From a virus: a DNA stretch of 45,982 nucleotides. A program made the position numbers and the translations under genes. This document shows positions 129-21,082 of this stretch, piece after piece. The notes under the pieces were generated by a model. That model saw only the letters and a list, made by a program, of their open reading frames with translations. It did not search any database and was not told the origin of the DNA. Numbering within the stretch: position 1 is the first letter of the stretch; the number at the start of each line of letters is the position of its first letter. The stretch lies in the UHGV virus genome UHGV-0170246; one strand, 5' to 3'.

Positions 129-683
129 ATGCAATATGGTTATGCGAGGGTGTCAACTTTTGACCAGAATTTGGAATTACAACTGGAGGCGCTCAGGAGT
201 TCAGGATGTGACCGGATTTTTGAAGATAAAATATCCGGTGCTAAATCAAAACGACCAGGACTTGATAAGCTACTGAAGGTGTTACGACCGGGCGATACGG
301 TTATTGTCTGGAAGCTGGACCGAATGGGGCGTTCTCTGATTCATCTTGTTGATTTACTTAACCATTTTTTATCAAACGACATTGAGTTTATTTCGATTAC
401 GGAAGGGATAAAAATTAGCACTTCAATTGGCCGCTTTGCCTACACGATGCTGAGTGCAGTCGCAGAGATGGAGCGGGAAAATATGATTGAAAGAACGCGT
501 GCAGGATTGGCGGTGGCAAGGGCTAACGGCAGGATAGGAGGACGCCGCTCAAAGCTGGCACCAGAGCAATGGGAACAGATCGGAAGGCTTATTGCGAATG
601 GTGTTTCACGTAAGCGGATAGCGATTATCTTCGATGTTACCTTATCCACGCTTTACCGCAGGTTTCCGGCTGGGAATCATTGA
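129..683 (+). CDS. Serine recombinase, DNA invertase of the Gin/Cin/Pin/Hin family
   Basis: 184 aa; N-terminal YARVST..Q motif with catalytic Ser, GRIGGR and C-terminal HTH; close to phage Mu Gin from recalled sequence. Confidence 0.9.
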   Translation: MQYGYARVSTFDQNLELQLEALRSSGCDRIFEDKISGAKSKRPGLDKLLKVLRPGDTVIVWKLDRMGRSLIHLVDLLNHFLSNDIEFISITEGIKISTSIGRFAYTMLSAVAEMERENMIERTRAGLAVARANGRIGGRRSKLAPEQWEQIGRLIANGVSRKRIAIIFDVTLSTLYRRFPAGNH

Positions 684-870: not shown

Positions 871-953
871 ACAAAAAGCCCGCAGATAAATCTGCGGGCT
901 TCTTGCGACATCCACGGAAAGGAAAACCAACAACTAACCATGGGCGCCTCGAC
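871..953 (-). ncRNA. Candidate CopA-like antisense RNA of the repA leader
   Basis: Minus-strand promoter (rc of 983-988 gives TTGCGT -35, 16-nt spacer, rc of 961-966 gives a perfect TATAAT -10) followed by a 9-bp GC-rich hairpin (877-900) and a U-run on the minus strand; geometry matches IncFII copA/copT, but coordinates are inferred. Confidence 0.4.
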
Positions 954-998
954 TACTCCCATTATACGTTGGTTTTCCGTGGACGCAAGAGCGAACAT

Positions 999-1847
999 AT
1001 GGATAGACCAATGCCGTCTCTACGTTCAGCTTACGTTTGTAATTTGTCGCCGGAGTTCCAGCCTCCAAAGCACCATACGCACAAGCTGCCGCTGGTGTTA
1101 TCTGATGCTTTACAGCGCATTAATGGTCGTGATCTTACGTGTGAGGTTGCGTTCTACGTTAATCAACCGTCAGAGCGGAAACGCCGGATAAACGAGCATC
1201 GTCGTCGGGCGATTAATGCTGTGATTGCTGCGATTTTGCACCATGTAAACATCATTTCTAAGCGGGTTCTGGCCAGTGCTGAGGCGTTGGCTGATTTTTG
1301 CGGCCTGTCTACCGTATCCGAAGCTGGGAACAAGTCTATAACGCGCTGTACAAGGGCGTTGTCGCAACTGAAAGAGTTAGGTTTTATTGATTATGAACGT
1401 CGCTGGGATCGGGTGAATAAACAGTATTGGCCAGCGAAAATCGAGATTCGTGATCAACTGCTGGAAACAGTTGGTATTACTGAACAAGCATGGAGACGTG
1501 CGGTTAGCCAGAAACTTAATTACTTCAATGCGAAGAATAGCGAACGGCTTAAAAAAGCGATAACGGAGGCTGATTATAAGCGTATTGTTATTCAGGAGCA
1601 GATGGAGAATGTATGGCGTCAGAGGAAGACGGCCAGAGAGATAAAGGCAAAACAGAAAGCAGCGGAGAGAGCTGCGCGTCTTGTTCAGGAAAAGGGAGAG
1701 GCCGAACTTCGTCATCAAATCACTAGAGAGGTTAGCCAGGAATTTGCTGATGGCATGTATCCTGGTGCTGACCTTGCATATTTACGCTCCCTCGTTGAGC
1801 AGCGTTATAACAGGCTAAGAAAGACCTGGAAATCACTCCAACATTAA
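999..1847 (+). CDS. repA: Plasmid replication initiator, IncFII RepA1-like
   Basis: In-frame ATG inside ORF 855-1847 gives 282 aa, close to RepA1 length; motif GLSTVSEAGNKSITRCTRALSQLKELGFIDY resembles the R100 RepA1 region as recalled. The GTG at 855 is probably an ORF-finder extension. Confidence 0.7.
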   Translation: MDRPMPSLRSAYVCNLSPEFQPPKHHTHKLPLVLSDALQRINGRDLTCEVAFYVNQPSERKRRINEHRRRAINAVIAAILHHVNIISKRVLASAEALADFCGLSTVSEAGNKSITRCTRALSQLKELGFIDYERRWDRVNKQYWPAKIEIRDQLLETVGITEQAWRRAVSQKLNYFNAKNSERLKKAITEADYKRIVIQEQMENVWRQRKTAREIKAKQKAAERAARLVQEKGEAELRHQITREVSQEFADGMYPGADLAYLRSLVEQRYNRLRKTWKSLQH

Positions 1848-1859
1848 CCCACCTGAATG

Positions 1860-2300
1860 ATGAATCCGGTTTTACCGGAGGATTATCTACGTCGCAATAA
1901 AATATCTGTTCAAAAAACAATCTAAATTAATTTTCTCTAAACCTGAACACAGCAAAAATATCGCCTTTACAGGTATCGGATAATAAAGTTATCCACAGTT
2001 TTGATATGTATATGCAAATGGTTTTTTATAATAGATGCACTAAACAAATAAATGCAAAATTACTTTCTTTTATTAAAACTTTCTTTATTTAACTTACGCA
2101 GGCTTTGCCTGTGAATATGTTCGCCCTTGCAGCGAGCTAAAGCTCGCGCCGGTTCGAGTCGCTACGCTCAAATATACCTCCTCCGGCACTTGCCGGAGGC
2201 ATGGAGCAGCCTGATCATCCTTTTCGAAACGGCGCGTTTCGAACTATACAAAATCAATTTATATAAGGCCGAAATAAGGCCTACGGCCGGGCTTTGCAGG
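1860..2300. other. Candidate replication origin (oriR-like): consensus DnaA box TTATCCACA at 1989-1997, AT-rich tract and several perfect palindromes
   Basis: DnaA box read directly; AT-rich 1920-2100; palindromes GCGAGCTAAAGCTCGC (~2132-2147) and TTCGAAACGGCGCGTTTCGAA (~2224-2244); position just downstream of repA as in IncFII replicons. Confidence 0.5.
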
Positions 2301-3065: not shown

Positions 3066-3303
3066 GGCTTTCGCGTCGAAAATGAGGCGAAACTGAAAAC
3101 GAGATTTCATTAACAAATAAGCAACATAAAAAACGGTGGAAAACGCCCAGGAAAACATGATCTTTTGAGCGGATTTTTTAGATCCGACAATGAACGGTGA
3201 TCCGGTGGTGCCGATAACGTCCATTATGTTAAATAGCCCCGTTTTTCTTGAAATTATAACCCACAGGTTATATAGTTAGTGATATAAACTACAGGTTATA
3301 GGA

Positions 3304-3657
3304 TTGAGCATGTGGACGGTACTTTTTAGCCAGCGATTTGACGACTGGCTAAATGAGCAAGAAGACGCTCTTCAGGAAAAGGTTTTGGCTGATTTGAAAA
3401 AGCTACAGGTTTACGGACCTGAGTTACCCAGGCCATATGCCGATACCGTAAAAGGTTCTCGGTACAAAAATATGAAAGAGCTTCGCGTTCAGTTTTCTGG
3501 CCGTCCGATAAGAGCCTTTTATGCGTTCGATCCGATTCGCCGGGCCATCGTTCTTTGTGCAGGAGACAAAAGTAACGATAAACGGTTTTATGAAAAACTG
3601 GTGCGTATAGCTGAGGATGAGTTTGCAGCACATCTGAACACACTGGAGAGCAAGTAA
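3304..3657 (+). CDS. RelE/ParE-superfamily toxin, HigB-like (phage Gp49-like)
   Basis: 117 aa; toxin precedes an HTH antitoxin with TAATGA stop/start overlap at 3655-3660; family assignment from recalled pattern. Confidence 0.6.
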   Translation: MSMWTVLFSQRFDDWLNEQEDALQEKVLADLKKLQVYGPELPRPYADTVKGSRYKNMKELRVQFSGRPIRAFYAFDPIRRAIVLCAGDKSNDKRFYEKLVRIAEDEFAAHLNTLESK

Positions 3658-3956
3658 TGAGAACATTAGATGAGGTGATTGCCAGCCGTTCACCTGAAAG
3701 CCAGGCGCGAATTAAAGAAATGGCAGATGAGATGATTCTTGAGGTCGGCTTGCAGATGATGCGTGAAGAACTCCAGTTATCACAAAAACAGGTTGCTGAG
3801 GCGATGGGTATAAGCCAGCCAGCAGTAACAAAGCTGGAGCAGCGCGGAAATGATTTAAAGCTGGCGACATTAAAGCGTTACGTTGAAGCTATGGGAGGCA
3901 AATTAAGCCTGGATGTTGAGCTTCCCACAGGAAAACGAATAGCGTTTAACATCTGA
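3657..3956 (+). CDS. HTH XRE-family antitoxin, HigA-like
   Basis: 99 aa; HTH segment LSQKQVAEAMGISQPAVTKLE; translationally coupled to the upstream toxin. Confidence 0.6.
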   Translation: MRTLDEVIASRSPESQARIKEMADEMILEVGLQMMREELQLSQKQVAEAMGISQPAVTKLEQRGNDLKLATLKRYVEAMGGKLSLDVELPTGKRIAFNI

Positions 3957-3971
3957 TCAGAACGAATGATA

Positions 3972-3997
3972 AGCCCCTGTTGCAAAGGGGCTTTTTT
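3972..3997 (+). terminator. Rho-independent terminator
   Basis: 7-bp stem AGCCCCT/AGGGGCT with a 7-nt loop followed by TTTTTT. Confidence 0.65.
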
Positions 3998-4003
3998 GTG
4001 CTC

Positions 4004-4119
4004 ATAGAATTATATAATTATATATTTATATAAAAAATGCTTTACAGGTGGGAAAAAATTTCCTAAGGTTATAACCGAAACCGAGCGATACCCGCCCTGG
4101 TTAAACCGGAGATAACCCG
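4004..4119 (+). repeat. Conserved promoter/leader cassette, copy A (AT-rich repeat, TTTACA -35 at 4041-4046, ~70-nt leader, GGAG RBS)
   Basis: Near-identical to 13072-13190 and 20695-20812; ends at the ATG of the downstream gene. Confidence 0.7.
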
Positions 4120-4500
4120 ATGAGCATGATTAAAATCCGCAAAAATGCTTTCCTTAAAATTCAAACTATCCTGGCTGGTTCTGTTGGCGTGATTTGCCGT
4201 TCTTCTTCAAGCCGCATCGATGACGGCTACGATGATGAGTACCGTGTGTCCTCGTGCGATGAGGCTTTAACCTGGCTGAAGGAGAATCAGGAACGTGCCC
4301 AGGTATATCTGGAAACAGAGAACGGCAATCAGATGCTGCGTATTAGCGGTCGTTATGGATTTGAAACTACATTCATGGCCTATTTTAATCAGGCTTACTT
4401 TGACAAGGAGCTGGCCTGGTACACTGATCGCATGAGCAAAAGCGAGCCAGCCCCGATTACACCGCCGAACAATAAACCATTTTTATTCCTCGTTAAGTAA
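4120..4500 (+). CDS. Hypothetical protein, first gene after cassette A
   Basis: 126-aa ORF with GGAG RBS inside the conserved leader. Confidence 0.5.
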   Translation: MSMIKIRKNAFLKIQTILAGSVGVICRSSSSRIDDGYDDEYRVSSCDEALTWLKENQERAQVYLETENGNQMLRISGRYGFETTFMAYFNQAYFDKELAWYTDRMSKSEPAPITPPNNKPFLFLVK

Positions 4501-5645: not shown

Positions 5646-6791
5646 TTATGGTCTGCTTTTCTGTGCCAGCTTATCAGCACATGTTTTTATCAGATCCTGT
5701 AGTGTCCTGGCTGGCAGGTTTGCATCCAGTACGCTGAGTATGCTGTTGTGTTCTGCTTGGTCGACTACTTTGCCTGTCGGTGGTAGTAGCTTGAGCTGAG
5801 GATTCAGGTTTTCGTCAAAGCTGATAAGTGCTCTGGCGTTTCTGAGCAGATCAAGAAGTAAGGCTGATATCACATTTTCCTGAGTCATTGCTGGCAGACT
5901 TAGCGCCGCTTTGGTTTTCCCTGTTGCCTTGTCAAACTCCTTGATTAGTTCCTTCCTGTAGTTCGGTTCCGTTAATAGCCGATTATGCTCTGTTGCCGCG
6001 CGGATAATCGTTTTTTCCTGGTATAGTCGTTTAGCCAGATCACGCTCGTACTGTGTTTTTAACACGCTGCTGATAGCGTTAAAGGCTTCAATGTAGGCCA
6101 GCTTGATATCTTTCACGCTTGGACCGTCGATGCTCTCCATGAGCAAGGTAAATCCGTCTTTTGTCATGCGATAGATTGTTATTTCGCGGTCGCTTCCTTC
6201 CAGCGGTCGTTGCTCTTTAAAGAAGTGACGCGCCGCAGCTGTGCGAGGAATGCGTAACGCATCGATGGCCATAACGATGGAATTGTTTGTGGTGCTGAAT
6301 GCCTGGGCAACATCGGCTGAGGTTGTGAGTGGCTCGTTGTTGCACACCTTAATGTAATACATTGGTTTAGCGTTGAGCGTATCGACAACCTCACGAGCAT
6401 TGTTTGGTGAGACGGTTACGGTCGCGGCCGTTTGCGCGTTCTGGTTGAAGTAGCAGTCTTCCAGCCGTTCGAATACATCCCACGCCTGATCGGTTTCGAG
6501 CATTTTAGCGTGACGTGCAGCCCCGCGTTCTGTCCAGAGGATGAGGGAGCGGACTTTAGGTGAAACTGGATTTTGAGAGTAGTTTAAAGCTACCCGCAAT
6601 TCTTTAAGGTCATTACCAACAACTTTGAAAAAGTGTTTCCCTTCAACGAAACGTGCTTTGTTCTCATGATGATTCTGGCGAATACGCACCGGCTCAGTGC
6701 CGTAAAGCTGTGCTAGTAACTCGGTAGTAATGACAGGGATTTGGTTATGCAGGATAGGCTGTAGGGTGTTAACGGTCGGAAGCGTTTTCAT
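5646..6791 (-). CDS. Antirepressor-like protein (ORF6N-type N-terminus, Rha-like central region)
   Basis: 381 aa; N-terminal pattern PVITTELLAQLYGTEPVRIRQNHHENKARFVEGKHFFK and internal TTSADVAQAF segment typical of phage Ant/Rha-type regulators (recalled domain patterns). Confidence 0.55.
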   Translation of the reverse strand: MKTLPTVNTLQPILHNQIPVITTELLAQLYGTEPVRIRQNHHENKARFVEGKHFFKVVGNDLKELRVALNYSQNPVSPKVRSLILWTERGAARHAKMLETDQAWDVFERLEDCYFNQNAQTAATVTVSPNNAREVVDTLNAKPMYYIKVCNNEPLTTSADVAQAFSTTNNSIVMAIDALRIPRTAAARHFFKEQRPLEGSDREITIYRMTKDGFTLLMESIDGPSVKDIKLAYIEAFNAISSVLKTQYERDLAKRLYQEKTIIRAATEHNRLLTEPNYRKELIKEFDKATGKTKAALSLPAMTQENVISALLLDLLRNARALISFDENLNPQLKLLPPTGKVVDQAEHNSILSVLDANLPARTLQDLIKTCADKLAQKSRP

Positions 6792-6979: not shown

Positions 6980-7394
6980 GGTGATAGTTCCCTTAAAGGT
7001 TAAGGATACTCACCACCGTCTGGTTCCAATCATTGGGTGGTGAGACGTACAGGGTTGGAACTACCGGTCACCATGGAATCCGGCGAGTCTTACGACTCCC
7101 CCGCACGCCCCACCATAATTTGGGTGTAGCAGTGCTTTACGCATAAAAAAACCGCTAACGCGGTATGCGCCATGATGATTATCGGGGTTCCAATCCCGAC
7201 CGTAGATTTTGCTACGGCTCGGAAAGTGTCCACCAATGGCGCATTTATGTCAATACAGAGGGATTTTAACAGAGACAACCACATAGCGTGGGTTTATTGG
7301 TAGGCAGAAACAAAAAAACCGCCCTATTGAGGACGGTTCTTTCGTGCTGATCGGATTCGCGGTCCTTTCAGCATAACGTCGTTGTACTAATACA

Positions 7395-7414: not shown

Positions 7415-7644
7415 AACTACATTCTTACCCAACTGAGGTGAATAGTCCACTATTCATATAAAAAAATTTAGCTCATTAGCTCATGCAAAATGAAGGTTTT
7501 TAACTTATTTACGTGTAATCTCATGTAATAAAAGCGTTTTTTATTCCTTCATTATGAAGGGTATGACGTGTAATATGGCTTGGGGCCTTTCCGCCGATTC
7601 GCACCCGGGCACTGACTTTCAGGAAAGGATTATCCACTTGCCGT

Positions 7645-7664
7645 ACCACGCAGGCACAAACAGC
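7645..7664. repeat. Direct repeat copy 2 (ACCACGCAGGCACAAACAGC)
   Basis: See copy 1. Confidence 0.6.
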
Positions 7665-7728
7665 GTGCTTGCTCTCGCGTCATTTTCGTCGGTGGGGATG
7701 CCGTGAAACGGCCTGTAAGGGCCACACA

Positions 7729-7851
7729 ATGAAAAAATACTACATGTGTATTTTTATCGTTGTTACTGGAGCTTTGTTTACGCCACATGGGGAGGGTTGG
7801 AAGATTACTGATAACGCTCTGAATGTGACGATAAACATTAGCAGCAAGTAG
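7729..7851 (+). CDS. Possible small hydrophobic peptide (40 aa)
   Basis: In-frame ATG of ORF 7669-7851; one predicted transmembrane stretch (YYMCIFIVVTGALF); followed at once by a strong terminator; no recognisable family. Confidence 0.2.
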   Translation: MKKYYMCIFIVVTGALFTPHGEGWKITDNALNVTINISSK

Positions 7852-7856
7852 CGATT

Positions 7857-7880
7857 AGGCCCCTTCGGGGGCCTTTTTTA
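7857..7880 (+). terminator. Rho-independent terminator
   Basis: 7-bp stem AGGCCCC/GGGGCCT with TTCG tetraloop followed by TTTTTT. Confidence 0.75.
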
Positions 7881-8537: not shown

Positions 8538-8570
8538 TTATATAAATCTATAAAACTATAATTATATATT
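8538..8570. repeat. AT-rich motif locus (TATAAATCTATAAAACTATAATTATATATT) downstream of parG
   Basis: Member of the dispersed TATAATTATATA(AAT) motif family. Confidence 0.55.
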
Positions 8571-9237
8571 ACGCGGCAGTAGTCAGAGCCTCAAGCTGGT
8601 TGATAATCCCCTGAATAACGTCGTCTGCCTTTTTGCGTGGCGCAACGTATGAGCATTCAATGAGGCTTAAGCCCTTATCCTGAGCTTTGCTCAGAGCTGG
8701 CTTGTGGGGAATGTACTTATCGACAACAAAGTATGGCGTATTAGCCAGGTACTCTTGGGCTTCAATATAGTCAGCTTCATTTTCAGCCGCGCCGGAAAAC
8801 ACCATGCAAATTTTCTTGATTGGCACACCCTTTTTAACGATGCCGTGAGCAGTGTTAACGGTGGTTTCCAGGTCATCGGTAGAGAATCGGGTTGGCAAAA
8901 TAACCATATCCAGAAATTCAGATAGCTTCGGTACTGATTCAGATGCGTAGGCACCGCCATCAACGATAACCAGGTCGTATACTTCTGATTCGATGATTTT
9001 CTGGACTTGTGATGGTGTGCCGCACGGCTGCGCCGCGATTGCTGGTTCGATATTGTTGGCCATTCTGCGTTGTACCCAACGCGTTACCGTTCCGTTAAGC
9101 ACATCCATATCGATCAGGCATACATTCCAGCCAGCCTTTGCATAAGCAACTGCTAAAGCACGGGCAATTGTTGATTTGGTTACGCCGCCTTTTCCGTTGA
9201 AAATACCTACAGAGATAGTCATTTGTCGAGACTCCAT
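8569..9237 (-). CDS. parA: ParA-family partition ATPase (small type Ib ParA/ParF-like)
   Basis: 222 aa; deviant Walker A GKGGVTKST near the N-terminus; followed by a small RHH protein gene. Confidence 0.8.
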   Translation of the reverse strand: MESRQMTISVGIFNGKGGVTKSTIARALAVAYAKAGWNVCLIDMDVLNGTVTRWVQRRMANNIEPAIAAQPCGTPSQVQKIIESEVYDLVIVDGGAYASESVPKLSEFLDMVILPTRFSTDDLETTVNTAHGIVKKGVPIKKICMVFSGAAENEADYIEAQEYLANTPYFVVDKYIPHKPALSKAQDKGLSLIECSYVAPRKKADDVIQGIINQLEALTTAA

Positions 9238-9246
9238 GTGTTTGGT

Positions 9247-9350
9247 TATATAATTCTATAAATCTATATTTATAGAACGAGGTAAGCATAACCAACTTTT
9301 TGGCGGATGGAAAGTGTTTTATATAATTATATAAATCTATAATCATATAA
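9247..9350. repeat. Two AT-rich motif blocks upstream of parA (candidate par promoter/centromere)
   Basis: TATATAATTCTATAAATCTATATTTATAGA and TTATATAATTATATAAATCTATAATCATATAA read directly. Confidence 0.55.
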
Positions 9351-9839: not shown

Positions 9840-10496
9840 TCATAACCAGTTGACAACACTAACTACGCGGCCAAGAACTTTATAACGCTTAAATTCCTCG
9901 TTATTCAGATGCTTAGTGTTCATTTCAGCATCCCTTTCGGTTGACAGCATAACAGCATTGTCACCCGGTATGACTCTACAGTGCCTCAAAACAACCAGGC
10001 CATTTCTGTCTTCAAGGGCATAGATCCCCTCATGAATCTCTGTATCGTCTGTATTAATCAGGACTTGGGAGCCAGGGGATATTGTTGGTGACATTAACTC
10101 ATCGTTGCTCTGGAGAACTGACAGAGACGATGGGTTGATGTTCTTGCTTCGTAGAATCTCCTGTTCTATCGCCAGCACTGGCTTTTCTCCGGCGTGCGAT
10201 GCTATGTCATTTTTTATAGCTACAAGCCCAGGAATAACAGGAGCGTTAGTATTCTGGGGTGGGAACGGGTTATCTGTTAAGCACGCGATATAAGGCGCTG
10301 ATGCTTTCAGGGCGTGCGCGATTTTCTTGATGGCAGGTATCGATGGTTGTCTTAATCCGGCCTCATAGTTCTGCAAGGTGCTTAAGCCTATTCCAGTGAC
10401 TTGCTGGAGATCTCCGGCAGTCATGCCGGATTGTTTCCGTAGAGTCTGAATGCGCAGACCTATTTCTTTCTTGATGTTCTCGTCGTTGCTTTTCAT
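9840..10496 (-). CDS. CI-like phage repressor (N-terminal HTH, C-terminal LexA/S24-like domain)
   Basis: 218 aa; HTH TAGDLQQVTGIGLSTLQNYEAG; C-terminal region has the overall S24 pattern but the GxSM catalytic motif is not obvious on hand alignment. Confidence 0.75.
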   Translation of the reverse strand: MKSNDENIKKEIGLRIQTLRKQSGMTAGDLQQVTGIGLSTLQNYEAGLRQPSIPAIKKIAHALKASAPYIACLTDNPFPPQNTNAPVIPGLVAIKNDIASHAGEKPVLAIEQEILRSKNINPSSLSVLQSNDELMSPTISPGSQVLINTDDTEIHEGIYALEDRNGLVVLRHCRVIPGDNAVMLSTERDAEMNTKHLNNEEFKRYKVLGRVVSVVNWL

Positions 10497-13071: not shown

Positions 13072-13190
13072 AAATCTATAAATATATAATTATAGATTTA
13101 TATAAAAAGTGCTTTACAGGTGGGAAAAAATTTCCTAAGGTTATACCCGAAACCGAGCGATACCCGCCCTGGTTAAACCGGAGAAATCTG
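13072..13190 (+). repeat. Conserved promoter/leader cassette, copy B (TTTACA at 13113-13118)
   Basis: Near-identical to cassettes A and C; ends at ATG 13191. Confidence 0.7.
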
Positions 13191-14258
13191 ATGAATAAAC
13201 AAGTAATTATTTCTGACTGGATCAACAACCCTAACAGCCTGTTAAGCACTGATACTGGCTACCTATTACGCCATGTTAATGGTCGTATGGTCAAAAGCGA
13301 TGAGCACGAAACCTTTTTCTTTGTTGAAGACGATGGGCGTATCTATGAGGATGGTTACTCTTATGAAGCCCAAACTGGTTGTATCCCTGCGGAGCTGGTG
13401 GACGTAACAGAAGATCTGCGCAAAGCATGGCTTGAACAGCAGCAGCGCGGAGATGATTACGTAAACACCTATCAGGAACGCCAGAACGCGCGTCTTGCCC
13501 GATATATTGCTCGTGCAGAAAAAGCCAGAAAAGAAGGTGCGGTAGCGCATAAGCGAGCGCATGACCTGTTGGATGTGATCCCGTTAGGCCAGCCGATTTT
13601 AGTTGACCATTATAGCGCGAAAGGCCATCGCCGCCGTTTGTCTAAAGCTGATGCGTTATTCAGAAAAGCGTTTGTTGAATGCGAAAGTAAAGCATCACAC
13701 TACGAGAGCAAAGCCGCAGGTGTTGGTCGTAATGGAATTTCGTCTGATGATCCTGATGCGCTATTTAAGTTGCTTCGTAAGCTGCAAGGCTGCATGAAGT
13801 CACACGTCAAAATGAAGGCAGCAAATAAGGCCATTCGCAAATACAAAAAAGACCAATTACAGCAGCTTTCTGCATTAATCGATCTCAGGTTTACAGAAAG
13901 CGAAGCCAAAGAGTTACTGGCCGGAGATTTCTGTGGGCACATCGGATTCCCTTCATACGCACTGAGCAACAATAAGGCCGAAATCAAACGACTACAGAGC
14001 CGTATTAAGGAGCTTGAATCGGTCAAGTCTGTAACAGGAGCACAGCGCGAAGAATACGACGGCTTTTCTATGGAGATAGATCCAGAGGATAACCGCATCC
14101 TGTTTTATTTCCCTGGCAAACCAGAGGCAAACATTCGTTCGCTGCTTAAATCACGCGCCTTTAAGTGGAGTCCAACCCGTAATGCATGGGTTCGCAAGAT
14201 TACTCCAAACGCCCTGGCTGATGCCCGATATCTGAAAGAATCGCTATTGAAAGCCTGA
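13191..14258 (+). CDS. Hypothetical protein (355 aa), first gene after cassette B
   Basis: Long ORF with GGAG RBS in the conserved leader; family not recognised. Confidence 0.5.
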   Translation: MNKQVIISDWINNPNSLLSTDTGYLLRHVNGRMVKSDEHETFFFVEDDGRIYEDGYSYEAQTGCIPAELVDVTEDLRKAWLEQQQRGDDYVNTYQERQNARLARYIARAEKARKEGAVAHKRAHDLLDVIPLGQPILVDHYSAKGHRRRLSKADALFRKAFVECESKASHYESKAAGVGRNGISSDDPDALFKLLRKLQGCMKSHVKMKAANKAIRKYKKDQLQQLSALIDLRFTESEAKELLAGDFCGHIGFPSYALSNNKAEIKRLQSRIKELESVKSVTGAQREEYDGFSMEIDPEDNRILFYFPGKPEANIRSLLKSRAFKWSPTRNAWVRKITPNALADARYLKESLLKA

Positions 14259-14288: not shown

Positions 14289-14320
14289 GTATATAGAATT
14301 ATATATTTATATAAATGTAT
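14289..14320. repeat. AT-rich motif locus (TATATAGAATTATATATTTATATAAATGTATA)
   Basis: Shares the ATAGAATTATATA core with cassettes A and C. Confidence 0.5.
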
Positions 14321-14335
14321 AAGGACGCCTCGACA

Positions 14336-19435: not shown

Positions 19436-19559
19436 TACCGCCTGTGATTGGGTAAAGCCCATCTACCTGACTGATCACGACATCGATGTTATGGACCGAC
19501 AGACAAAGAAAGATATTCTGGCTCATAACAGGGCATGGGAAATCAACTGTCCAAAGTAA
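19350..19559 (+). CDS. Putative o-spanin lipoprotein (Rz1-like), overlapping the i-spanin gene in another frame
   Basis: 69 aa; signal peptide with lipobox LIASC. Confidence 0.5.
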   Translation: MYSRVLTIWLMTMLIASCGSRGSVPVVVDTACDWVKPIYLTDHDIDVMDRQTKKDILAHNRAWEINCPK

Positions 19560-19594
19560 TATATATTTCTATAATTATATAAATATATAGTTAC
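19558..19594. repeat. AT-rich motif locus (ATATATTTCTATAATTATATAAATATATAG)
   Basis: Contains the CTATAATTATATAAAT core shared with the par-flanking repeats. Confidence 0.5.
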
Positions 19595-19728
19595 AACATT
19601 CTATGCGCTTTTCTCATGGGCGCACGCATCAACCATGTTTGTCTGATATGCCGCCGCGCCCAAAAATCCTGAATTTATTGGCTGGGATTTTCGTGCGCGG
19701 CGCCACACCAGACAAACAAATCAAATAT

Positions 19729-19804
19729 GGCCCCTTAGCTCAGTGGTTAGAGCAGGCGACTCATAATCGCACGGTCATCGGTTCAAATCCGGTAGGGGCC
19801 ACCA
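19729..19804 (+). tRNA. tRNA with anticodon CAU (Met, or Ile2 if lysidine-modified)
   Basis: Hand-folded cloverleaf: 7-bp acceptor stem GGCCCCT/AGGGGCC, D arm, anticodon loop CTCATAA, T arm GGTTCAAATCC, encoded CCA; strongly resembles E. coli ileX as I recall it. Confidence 0.85.
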
Positions 19805-20111: not shown

Positions 20112-20699
20112 ATGGAGGCAATTGCATTGTTTAATCTGATTTATGCAGATCCCCCCTGGGAATACAAAGACAAGTGTAAGGATGGGAATCGTGGAGCTGG
20201 TTTTAAGTATCCAACGATGAAAGCTGAGGAGATTGCTCGTATTCCTGTCTGGCAGCTTGCTAATCCTGAATCGTGTTTGTTGGCCATGTGGTGGGTTCCG
20301 ACTCAGCCAGAAGAAGCGTTGCTGGTGGTTAAAGCATGGGGATTCAGGCTGATGACCATGAAGGGCTTCACATGGAACAAATGTGGTAGCCGACAACCAG
20401 ATAAGCTGGTGATGGGGATGGGGCATATGACTCGTGCAAACAGTGAAGATTGCTTGTTTGCGGTAAAAGGCAAACTGCCGACCCGTCTTGATGCGGGGAT
20501 CATTCAGTCGTTTACATCGCCTCGTCTGGAGCATTCTCGGAAGCCTGATGTGGTCCGTGACAAGCTGGTAAAGCTGTTAGGTGATGTTCCTCGTATTGAG
20601 CTGTTTGCTCGCGGTGATTTACCTGATGGCTGGCATGGCTGGGGCAACCAGTGCAATGGAGGTATCCAGTTGCATGATGCTCTCTGGCAAGTGGCATAG
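20112..20699 (+). CDS. MT-A70 family N6-adenine DNA methyltransferase
   Basis: 195 aa; DPPW catalytic motif (YADPPWEY) near the N-terminus. Confidence 0.8.
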   Translation: MEAIALFNLIYADPPWEYKDKCKDGNRGAGFKYPTMKAEEIARIPVWQLANPESCLLAMWWVPTQPEEALLVVKAWGFRLMTMKGFTWNKCGSRQPDKLVMGMGHMTRANSEDCLFAVKGKLPTRLDAGIIQSFTSPRLEHSRKPDVVRDKLVKLLGDVPRIELFARGDLPDGWHGWGNQCNGGIQLHDALWQVA

Positions 20700-20812
20700 A
20701 ATTATATAATTATAGATTTATATAAAAAGTGCTTTACAGGTGGGAAAAAAATTTCCTAAGGTTATACCCGAAACCGAGCGATACCCGCCCTGGTTAAACC
20801 GGAGATAACCCG
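20695..20812 (+). repeat. Conserved promoter/leader cassette, copy C (TTTACA at 20733-20738)
   Basis: Near-identical to cassettes A and B; ends at ATG 20813. Confidence 0.7.
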
Positions 20813-21082
20813 ATGAAAGTACAAGACCGTGAAGTAGTAAAAAACCTCCTGCAATACCTGACCTCAAAAAACCTGACGGGCAGCGTTGAGTTCCGTGAAG
20901 CGTTAAAACATTTCAACGTCACTACGGTTTATCGTTGGGAAAACGAACATTCTGAAAGACCGTATGTGGTGGATGTTTTTGCGCCTGATATTGAGTGCGG
21001 TTTTGAGCGTCATTCGTTCAAGGAGAAACATTCCGCTGATGTTTTTTGTGAGGTTGTATGTGCGGCAGGAGATGATGAGTGA
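20813..21082 (+). CDS. Hypothetical protein, first gene after cassette C
   Basis: 89-aa ORF with GGAG RBS in the conserved leader. Confidence 0.45.
   Translation: MKVQDREVVKNLLQYLTSKNLTGSVEFREALKHFNVTTVYRWENEHSERPYVVDVFAPDIECGFERHSFKEKHSADVFCEVVCAAGDDE

Follow-up and report, generated by a model that had tools for sequence, protein, structure and literature searches.

We analysed a 45,982-nucleotide (nt) stretch of DNA, the virus genome UHGV-0170246 (the window, always meaning this stretch at its full length), and focus here on a cassette of two genes encoding a HigB-like toxin and a HigA-like antitoxin (Table 1). Both open reading frames (ORFs) run in the same direction, with the toxin gene first as an earlier note on this DNA had described. 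The toxin ORF opens at a TTG codon (3304), but the ATG at 3310 is the likely start of the protein, because AGGA lies just upstream of it and 43 homologues begin with MWTV at this point. The antitoxin ORF is initiated by an ATG, and the two genes share a single nucleotide in the sequence TAATG (stop codon TAA 3655-3657, start codon ATG 3657-3659), not the 4 bp that the earlier note had given. A 4-bp overlap is present instead in relatives with ~75% identical DNA (annotated 1311..1661 and 1658..1957). Apart from the length of this overlap, the original observations were right and their interpretation is supported: the data support an ordinary two-gene type II toxin–antitoxin (TA) cassette that belongs to the plasmid-maintenance part of a ~48-kb Escherichia coli phage-plasmid. 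The cassette is located between the genes for an IncFII-type RepA and ParA, in agreement with the plasmid-like surroundings proposed for it.

Table 1. Features of the cassette, followed by other genes of the window mentioned in the text. SD, Shine–Dalgarno sequence; aa, amino acids; HTH, helix-turn-helix.
Feature	Position	Strand	Description
dif/cer-like XerC/XerD core site	3207..3234	+	GGTGCCGATAA-CGTCCA-TTATGTTAAAT
Sigma-70-type promoter	3248..3276	+	-35 TTGAAA 3248-3253, 17-nt spacer, -10 TATAGT 3271-3276
Putative operator O1	3255..3272		Palindrome TATAACC-CACA-GGTTATA, within spacer, overlaps -10
Putative operator O2	3283..3300		TATAAAC-TACA-GGTTATA, between -10 and ribosome-binding site
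Toxin SD	3300-3303	+	AGGA, 6 nt 5′ of ATG 3310
higB-like toxin gene	3310..3657	+	115 aa; Gp49-domain RelE-superfamily toxin
Antitoxin SD	3645-3648	+	GGAG, 8 nt upstream of antitoxin start
higA-like antitoxin gene	3657..3956	+	99 aa; XRE/Cro-C1 HTH at ~residues 32-83
Intrinsic terminator	3971..3999	+	Stem AAGCCCCT/AGGGGCTT, 7-nt loop GTTGCAA, T6 tract
Hin-type (Hin/Pin-type) serine invertase gene	129-683		Beside tail-fibre DNA at window start
IncFII-type RepA	855-1847
ORF6N/Rha-domain protein	5646-6791	-
ParA	8569-9237	-
HTH repressor-like gene	9840-10496	-

The toxin and antitoxin proteins

Profile searches, a check proposed in the earlier note, came out positive for both proteins, and the refuting outcome that the note had named for the toxin, no predicted RelE/ParE fold, did not occur. 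The toxin matches the Pfam family Gp49 (PF05973) at E 5.4e-23 (81.3 bits against a cutoff of 23.9 bits) over 89 of the 90 profile positions, and PHROG 3445 ('toxin') at E 2e-33. The strength of the Gp49 match, together with the presence of the cassette on 138 plasmid records, places the pair far beyond chance. The canonical HigB profile PF05015 (HigB-like_toxin) is absent from the toxin's Pfam results at E<=0.01, and the score against NCBIfam TIGR02683 (upstrm_HI1419 RelE/ParE toxin) is 18.9 bits, below the cutoff of 62.85 bits. The HigBA-type assignment is supported with 'HigB' understood in the Gp49-domain sense; it does not extend to the canonical HigB family of Rts1 and E. coli.

The AlphaFold2 model of the toxin (43 homologues) has a predicted local distance difference test score (pLDDT) of 89.6 and a predicted template-modelling (TM) score of 0.83, and displays a predicted beta-alpha-alpha-beta4 topology with a long C-terminal helix. 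When this model was compared with the Protein Data Bank (PDB) using Foldseek, the top 17 matches were all RNase toxins of the RelE superfamily (RelE, HigB, HigB2, YoeB, HP0894). The best of these were Thermus thermophilus RelE, Streptococcus pneumoniae HigB, Vibrio cholerae HigB2, Mycobacterium tuberculosis RelE1, E. coli RelE, HP0894, and YoeB, with a probability of 1.0, E-values down to 5e-5, and TM scores of 0.54-0.72 (up to 0.72 for S. pneumoniae HigB). The solved toxins that match the predicted fold, including S. pneumoniae HigB (6AF3/6AF4), V. cholerae HigB2 (5JAA), and RelE of T. thermophilus (2KHE) and E. coli (4FXE), share 14-20% sequence identity with the window toxin and are not detected by sequence profiles.

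The toxin belongs to a large family. An exhaustive profile search retrieved 3,249 clusters (50% identity) at E<=1e-3, 1,182 of them at E<=1e-10, and a tblastn search of plasmids placed the family on 1,986 records, chiefly from Acinetobacter, Klebsiella, Escherichia, and Salmonella. In an alignment of 65 members (33-57% identity), Y94 never varies, and conservation reaches 90% or more at K56, E57, L58, R59, R68, F73, D74, R77, and K87. The active-site set of E. coli RelE consists of K52, K54, R61, R81, and Y87; the conserved K56, R59, R68, K87, and Y94 of the window toxin resemble such a RelE-type set and may serve the same role. Gly64, within the motif FSG64RP, is invariant in a four-way alignment. 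In comparison with the orthologue on the Yersinia pestis plasmid pPCP1 (see below), the toxin has a ratio of non-synonymous to synonymous divergence (dN/dS) of 0.07, with 2 non-synonymous against 7 synonymous changes, and the antitoxin one of 0.11, values that reflect purifying selection, which is strong on the toxin.

The second protein carries an HTH domain, as the earlier note had it: it matches Pfam PF01381 (HTH_3) at E 3.9e-10 (40 bits against a 23-bit cutoff). Its sequence matches in the PDB are M. tuberculosis HigA3 (6LTY, E 4.6e-5) and HigA2 (7EWC) and S. pneumoniae HigA (6AF3_B), which makes it an XRE-type HTH protein with relatives of solved structure among the HigA antitoxins.

Characterized relatives

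The pair falls in the same subgroup as two characterized systems, IncC HigBA (Tad-Ata) and Acinetobacter baumannii pAB120 HigBA2. The first of these, from the IncC (IncA/C2) plasmid pEc158 (PMC8265657), has a toxin 55% and an antitoxin 45% identical to those of the window. The two systems have in common a Gp49-domain toxin gene in first and an XRE antitoxin gene in second position, a conserved G64, and a location among the maintenance genes of a plasmid backbone. They differ in that the IncC genes are separated by a short gap (1501..1851 and 1856..2158) instead of overlapping, and in the replicon, which is a large conjugative plasmid. IncC HigB is toxic and was reported to be a ribosome-dependent endoribonuclease (Qi et al. 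2021, PMC8265657); the G64V substitution abolishes its toxicity, and the higBA operon stabilizes plasmids (PMC8265657).

The closest antitoxin of a characterized type is found on an 11-kb A. baumannii plasmid (pYFY27.2, here L005), where the toxin and antitoxin are 57% and 61% identical to the window proteins. The L005 toxin and antitoxin are 52% and 51% identical to those of the IncC pair, and the published identity between the pAB120 and IncC systems is 51%; judged solely by this agreement, the L005 pair appears to be a pAB120-type HigBA2. A. baumannii HigBA2 has RNase activity in vitro and forms a tight toxin–antitoxin complex; HigA represses its own operon, and HigB acts as a co-repressor (Armalyte et al. 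2018, PMC5906591). The window pair and HigBA2 of the pAB120 type display the same reverse operon order.

A more distant comparison is that with gp49/gp48 of phage N15, a TA pair that is likewise found on a phage-plasmid and whose toxin is the founding member of Pfam Gp49. It is of the Tad-Ata type (Dziewit et al. 2007, as cited in PMC5906591). Both pairs are toxin-first with a 1-nt overlap, and the HTH regions of the antitoxins are 35% identical over 57 aa. We considered N15 gp49 as a close relative of the window toxin and rejected it: BLASTP finds no similarity between the two, and homology shows up at profile level only, where hhalign gives a probability of 90% with 26% identity across 84 columns, which makes gp49 a remote homologue. 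The canonical HigBA systems of Rts1 (Proteus vulgaris) and E. coli K-12 (PF05015) share the reverse order, a RelE-superfamily toxin, and an HTH antitoxin; unlike them, the window toxin has no PF05015 match at E<=0.01.

Promoter, putative operators, and terminator

The promoter matches the sigma-70 consensus at 10 of the 12 hexamer positions and is the sole sigma-70-like site between 2700 and 4600. Its -35 hexamer and spacing are conserved in pPCP1 and in the ~75%-identical relatives. Spaced 28 bp apart across the promoter are two 18-bp near-repeats (O1 and O2), both of them imperfect palindromes. Scored against the pattern TATAAC-N6-GTTATA, O1 has no mismatch and O2 has one, and they are the sole good matches in the 46 kb. 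In two relatives whose coding DNA is ~75% identical (L006 and L008), the arms of both sites have changed symmetrically to TATAAG...CTTATA (C to G in one arm, G to C in the other), which preserves the palindrome, the O2 counterpart reading TATAAGC-TATA-ACTTATA. The antitoxins of these diverged relatives differ in the HTH region (E48D, K59Q). Because the arms co-vary, we read the palindromes as probable HigA operators.

A third candidate, GGTTATAACC at 4067-4076, was rejected as a HigA operator, since it belongs to a separate promoter/leader element that occurs three times in the window (see below). A LexA box (CTGT-N8-ACAG), which could explain ciprofloxacin induction as in the IncC system, was not seen by eye between 3240 and 3305.

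A strong terminator had been noted at the end of the pair, and this was confirmed. The hairpin (3971-3993) begins 14 bases past the antitoxin stop, has an 8-bp stem with 5 GC pairs, and is followed by TTTTTTGT. Its folding energy is -13.9 kcal/mol (z -2.97), and 1 of 200 shuffled sequences was equally stable. Relatives carry hairpins of other sequence at the same position (-19.4 kcal/mol in L009, -15.4 kcal/mol in L006), so that the terminator function appears to be conserved.

Distribution of the cassette

Both proteins are identical to RefSeq entries, the toxin to WP_000269912.1 ('type II toxin-antitoxin system RelE/ParE family toxin') and the antitoxin to WP_001259436.1 ('helix-turn-helix domain-containing protein'). 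The pair is therefore already known, being annotated as such in more than 100 public plasmid records. The backbones of the 138 plasmid records with the cassette are phage-plasmids, the ColE1-type pPCP1, and plasmids of 24-30 kb. The 851-bp region is present at >=95% identity on 117 plasmid records, and 103 of the 5,426 complete E. coli genomes have it. Almost all of these copies reside on ~48-kb non-mobilizable plasmids, those in assemblies of ATCC 25922 included. Over the remainder of the window, which matches these plasmids at 98-99%, there are genes for terminase, portal, sheath, and tape measure proteins, and these together identify the element as a phage-plasmid. We found no description of this element in the phage-plasmid surveys that we consulted. 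The cassette is also carried by the Yersinia phages vB_YpM_39/41/44, where it is annotated as higB2; the Y. pestis phage HQ103 was considered as a match as well and rejected, being an unrelated 32-kb phage.

An orthologue of the cassette adjoins pla on the 9.6-kb, ColE1-type plasmid pPCP1 of Y. pestis, and this type occurs across 52 Yersinia records. The DNA is 95% identical over window positions ~3221-3946, the toxins are 98% and the antitoxins 95% identical, and the promoter/operator layout is the same. The homologous stretch starts within the Xer site and falls 10 nt short of the antitoxin stop codon; the antitoxin tail reads RRVAFHV in pPCP1 and KRIAFNI in the window, and the two do not have a terminator in common. 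In RefSeq the pPCP1 genes are tagged YPO_RS00045 and YPO_RS00040. A pla-flanking primer has been located in YPPCP1.08c (PMC5148098), and the pPCP1 antitoxin gene is probably this older YPPCP1.08c.

A subset of otherwise near-identical E. coli phage-plasmids switch sequence at window position 3946 (e.g. L009, pP136-7, where 2247-2843 was compared with 3946-4003). These have the pPCP1-type antitoxin C-terminus (I95V, N98H, I99V), another terminator, and an additional 94-aa minus-strand gene before the repeated promoter element. The switch suggests that the 3′ end of higA is a recombination breakpoint. Divergence is also mosaic in L006, L007, and L008, compared over window positions 3200-3956: hardly any change is found in the Xer/promoter DNA upstream, the toxin gene has diverged most within the cassette (67% aa identity, synonymous sites saturated), and the antitoxins are ~88-90% identical with a synonymous divergence (dS) of 0.8-1.3.

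The upstream Xer site

The dif/cer-like site lies 14 bases 5′ of the -35 hexamer, next to the TA operon but outside it. Compared with E. coli dif (GGTGCGCATAATGTATATTATGTTAAAT, given for example in PMC3025954), it has 2 mismatches; it occurs once in the window and had no counterpart in 100 shuffles. All phage-plasmid copies carry an identical site; in the 24-30-kb plasmids it is identical or one base off (L007), despite a toxin identity of 67%. At the same position pPCP1 has a cer-type site, GGTGCGTACAA-(9 nt)-TTATGTTAAAT, and on the left the stretch in common with pPCP1 is bounded by the Xer site. Two further plasmids (H134 and H135) match the site and its surroundings only, without the TA genes. 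The site is probably the multimer-resolution site of the element.

On pYFY27.2, higBA and a small downstream ORF are bracketed by oppositely oriented pdif-like XerC/XerD sites; sites of this kind lie at ~567-605, ~951-979 (- strand), and ~2352-2390 of L005. The L005 copy is thus flanked on both sides, whereas the window pair has a single Xer site, upstream. No second, inverted site was found in the whole window, in which the site at 3207-3234 is the only Xer-like one. The string TTTAACAT at 3952-3959 was considered as a downstream site and rejected, as it consists of codons for F-N-I and comes without a XerC arm. Having only one Xer site, the cassette falls outside the definition of an Acinetobacter-style pdif module, which has two inverse flanking sites.

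One could speculate that the Xer core, the promoter, and higBA form a discrete stability module that was recently exchanged between E. coli phage-plasmids and the plague virulence plasmid pPCP1 at a point within the XerC/XerD site. We consider this quite unlikely; if true, such a mobile module would be the enterobacterial counterpart of the Acinetobacter pdif modules. As the pPCP1 and phage-plasmid proteins are 95-98% identical, each antitoxin should neutralize the other's toxin. The phages vB_YpM_39/41/44 were isolated on Y. pestis, and if this cross-neutralization holds, a phage-plasmid like these that lysogenizes a pPCP1-bearing cell would lead to each element cancelling the addiction of the other.

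Proposed mechanism

Very likely, the cassette is a working Gp49-domain HigBA type II TA operon that is bicistronic, translationally coupled, and self-repressed, and that mediates addiction upon loss of the phage-plasmid. The analysis itself establishes the arrangement of the genes, their families, the predicted fold, the homology to validated systems, the layout of promoter, palindromes, and terminator, the purifying selection, and the distribution, whereas toxicity, RNase activity, complex formation, autorepression, and addiction are here inferred by homology to the characterized relatives. In the model, the sigma-70 promoter would give rise to a bicistronic higB-higA mRNA ending at the hairpin and its U-tract. 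Translation of the antitoxin would be coupled to that of the toxin via the TAATG junction and the GGAG 8 nt upstream. A HigA dimer, probably with HigB as co-repressor, would bind the two palindromes (one over the spacer and -10, the other over the region of +1 and the ribosome-binding site) and keep the operon off, and HigA would also bind and neutralize HigB. Upon loss of the phage-plasmid, or when transcription stops, labile HigA would be degraded, and the freed HigB, a RelE-fold endoribonuclease, would cut mRNA and arrest growth. In this way, plasmid-free segregants would be removed and the low-copy prophage-plasmid stabilized, alongside the functions of RepA, the Xer site, and ParA.

Several points weigh against this model. 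Post-segregational killing is one of several documented roles of TA systems, and the data do not separate addiction from phage defense. In the literature we found no experiment with the pair itself or with the pPCP1 orthologue, the latter being mentioned only incidentally. Searching the PDB by sequence, whether with the single toxin, a profile of close homologues, or a diverse 65-sequence profile, returned no true toxin match; with no solved relative detectable by sequence, the candidate catalytic residues come from conservation rather than from superposition. The operator role assigned to the palindromes derives from their position and from co-variation in a few sequences.

Alternative functions

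The pair might act mainly against phages, through abortive infection or superinfection exclusion. Host transcription shut-off by an infecting phage would then deplete HigA and free HigB, and plasmid stabilization would be a by-product. We give this a small but real chance, and it is compatible with the addiction model. The carrier of the cassette is itself a temperate phage-plasmid, and HigB-type toxins of toxin-antitoxin-chaperone systems are reported to protect against phage (bioRxiv 10.1101/2024.02.24.581848). In PADLOC, weak matches link the toxin to the C-terminal domain of NsnC, a candidate defense protein (E 6e-7), and the antitoxin to HTH_VI, but the pair as a system matches no defense-system model. 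The same cassette is also found on small non-phage plasmids such as pPCP1, it adjoins replication, Xer, and partition functions, and its nearest tested homologue stabilizes a plasmid (PMC8265657), all of which favor maintenance.

It is very improbable that the toxin is a ParE-like gyrase poison instead of an mRNA endonuclease. The RelE and ParE folds are the same, the name given by PGAP is merely 'RelE/ParE family', and the IncC homologue is reported to cause cell elongation and to be induced by ciprofloxacin (PMC8265657). However, PF05973 is the only Pfam family reported for the toxin, with no ParE-type family matching at E<=0.01, and the Foldseek matches with E<0.02 are RNase toxins with no ParE structure among them. 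Both characterized homologues reduce or cleave RNA (PMC5906591, PMC8265657). The conserved residues of the window toxin, moreover, are those that resemble the RelE set.

Equally hard to credit is a toxin that is inactive or domesticated, with the HTH protein acting chiefly as a transcription factor for other genes of the phage-plasmid: the GGTTATAACC string upstream of the next gene does share the operator half-site, but it lies within the separate 115-120-nt element, two of whose three copies read GGTTATACCC, the full operator pattern is well matched only at 3255 and 3283, and purifying selection on the toxin is strong, its key residues being kept.

Other features of the element

The separate element occurs in three intergenic copies of ~115-120 nt with 93-97% identity (4003-4123, 13077-13194, and 20695-20816). 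It contains AT-rich TATA palindromes, TTTACA-N17-TAAGGT, and a conserved leader with GGAG, and each copy stops exactly at the ATG of a plus-strand gene (4120, 13191, and 20813). It looks like one promoter/operator/leader serving three operons. Shorter AT-rich pieces are present at 8538-8570, 9246-9350, 14292-14326, and 19552-19608.

Just upstream of the ORF6N/Rha gene, Rfam models identify a C4 antisense RNA (7033-7120, minus strand, 84 bits) and isrK (7145-7218, minus strand, 70 bits). Together with the ORF6N/Rha gene, these form an antisense-controlled antirepressor arrangement like immI of P1/P7. A full-length ryfA match (7581-7879, plus strand, 134.6 bits) holds a 40-aa hydrophobic ORF (7729-7851, MKKYYMCIFIVVTGALF...). 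Chromosomal ryfA encodes the small toxin TimP, and the element may therefore have here another toxin locus, one of type I. In addition, a tRNA gene is found at 19729-19801 (67 bits).

Significance

The changes made here to the earlier picture of this locus, a 1-nt overlap and a Gp49-type rather than a canonical HigB toxin, are two small corrections. Mild leads come from the occurrence of the same cassette beside pla on pPCP1 and from the Xer site that bounds it on the left, which is relevant to the movement of stability modules between plasmids. The cassette would explain part of the persistence, without selection, of a common ~48-kb phage-plasmid found, for example, in ATCC 25922.

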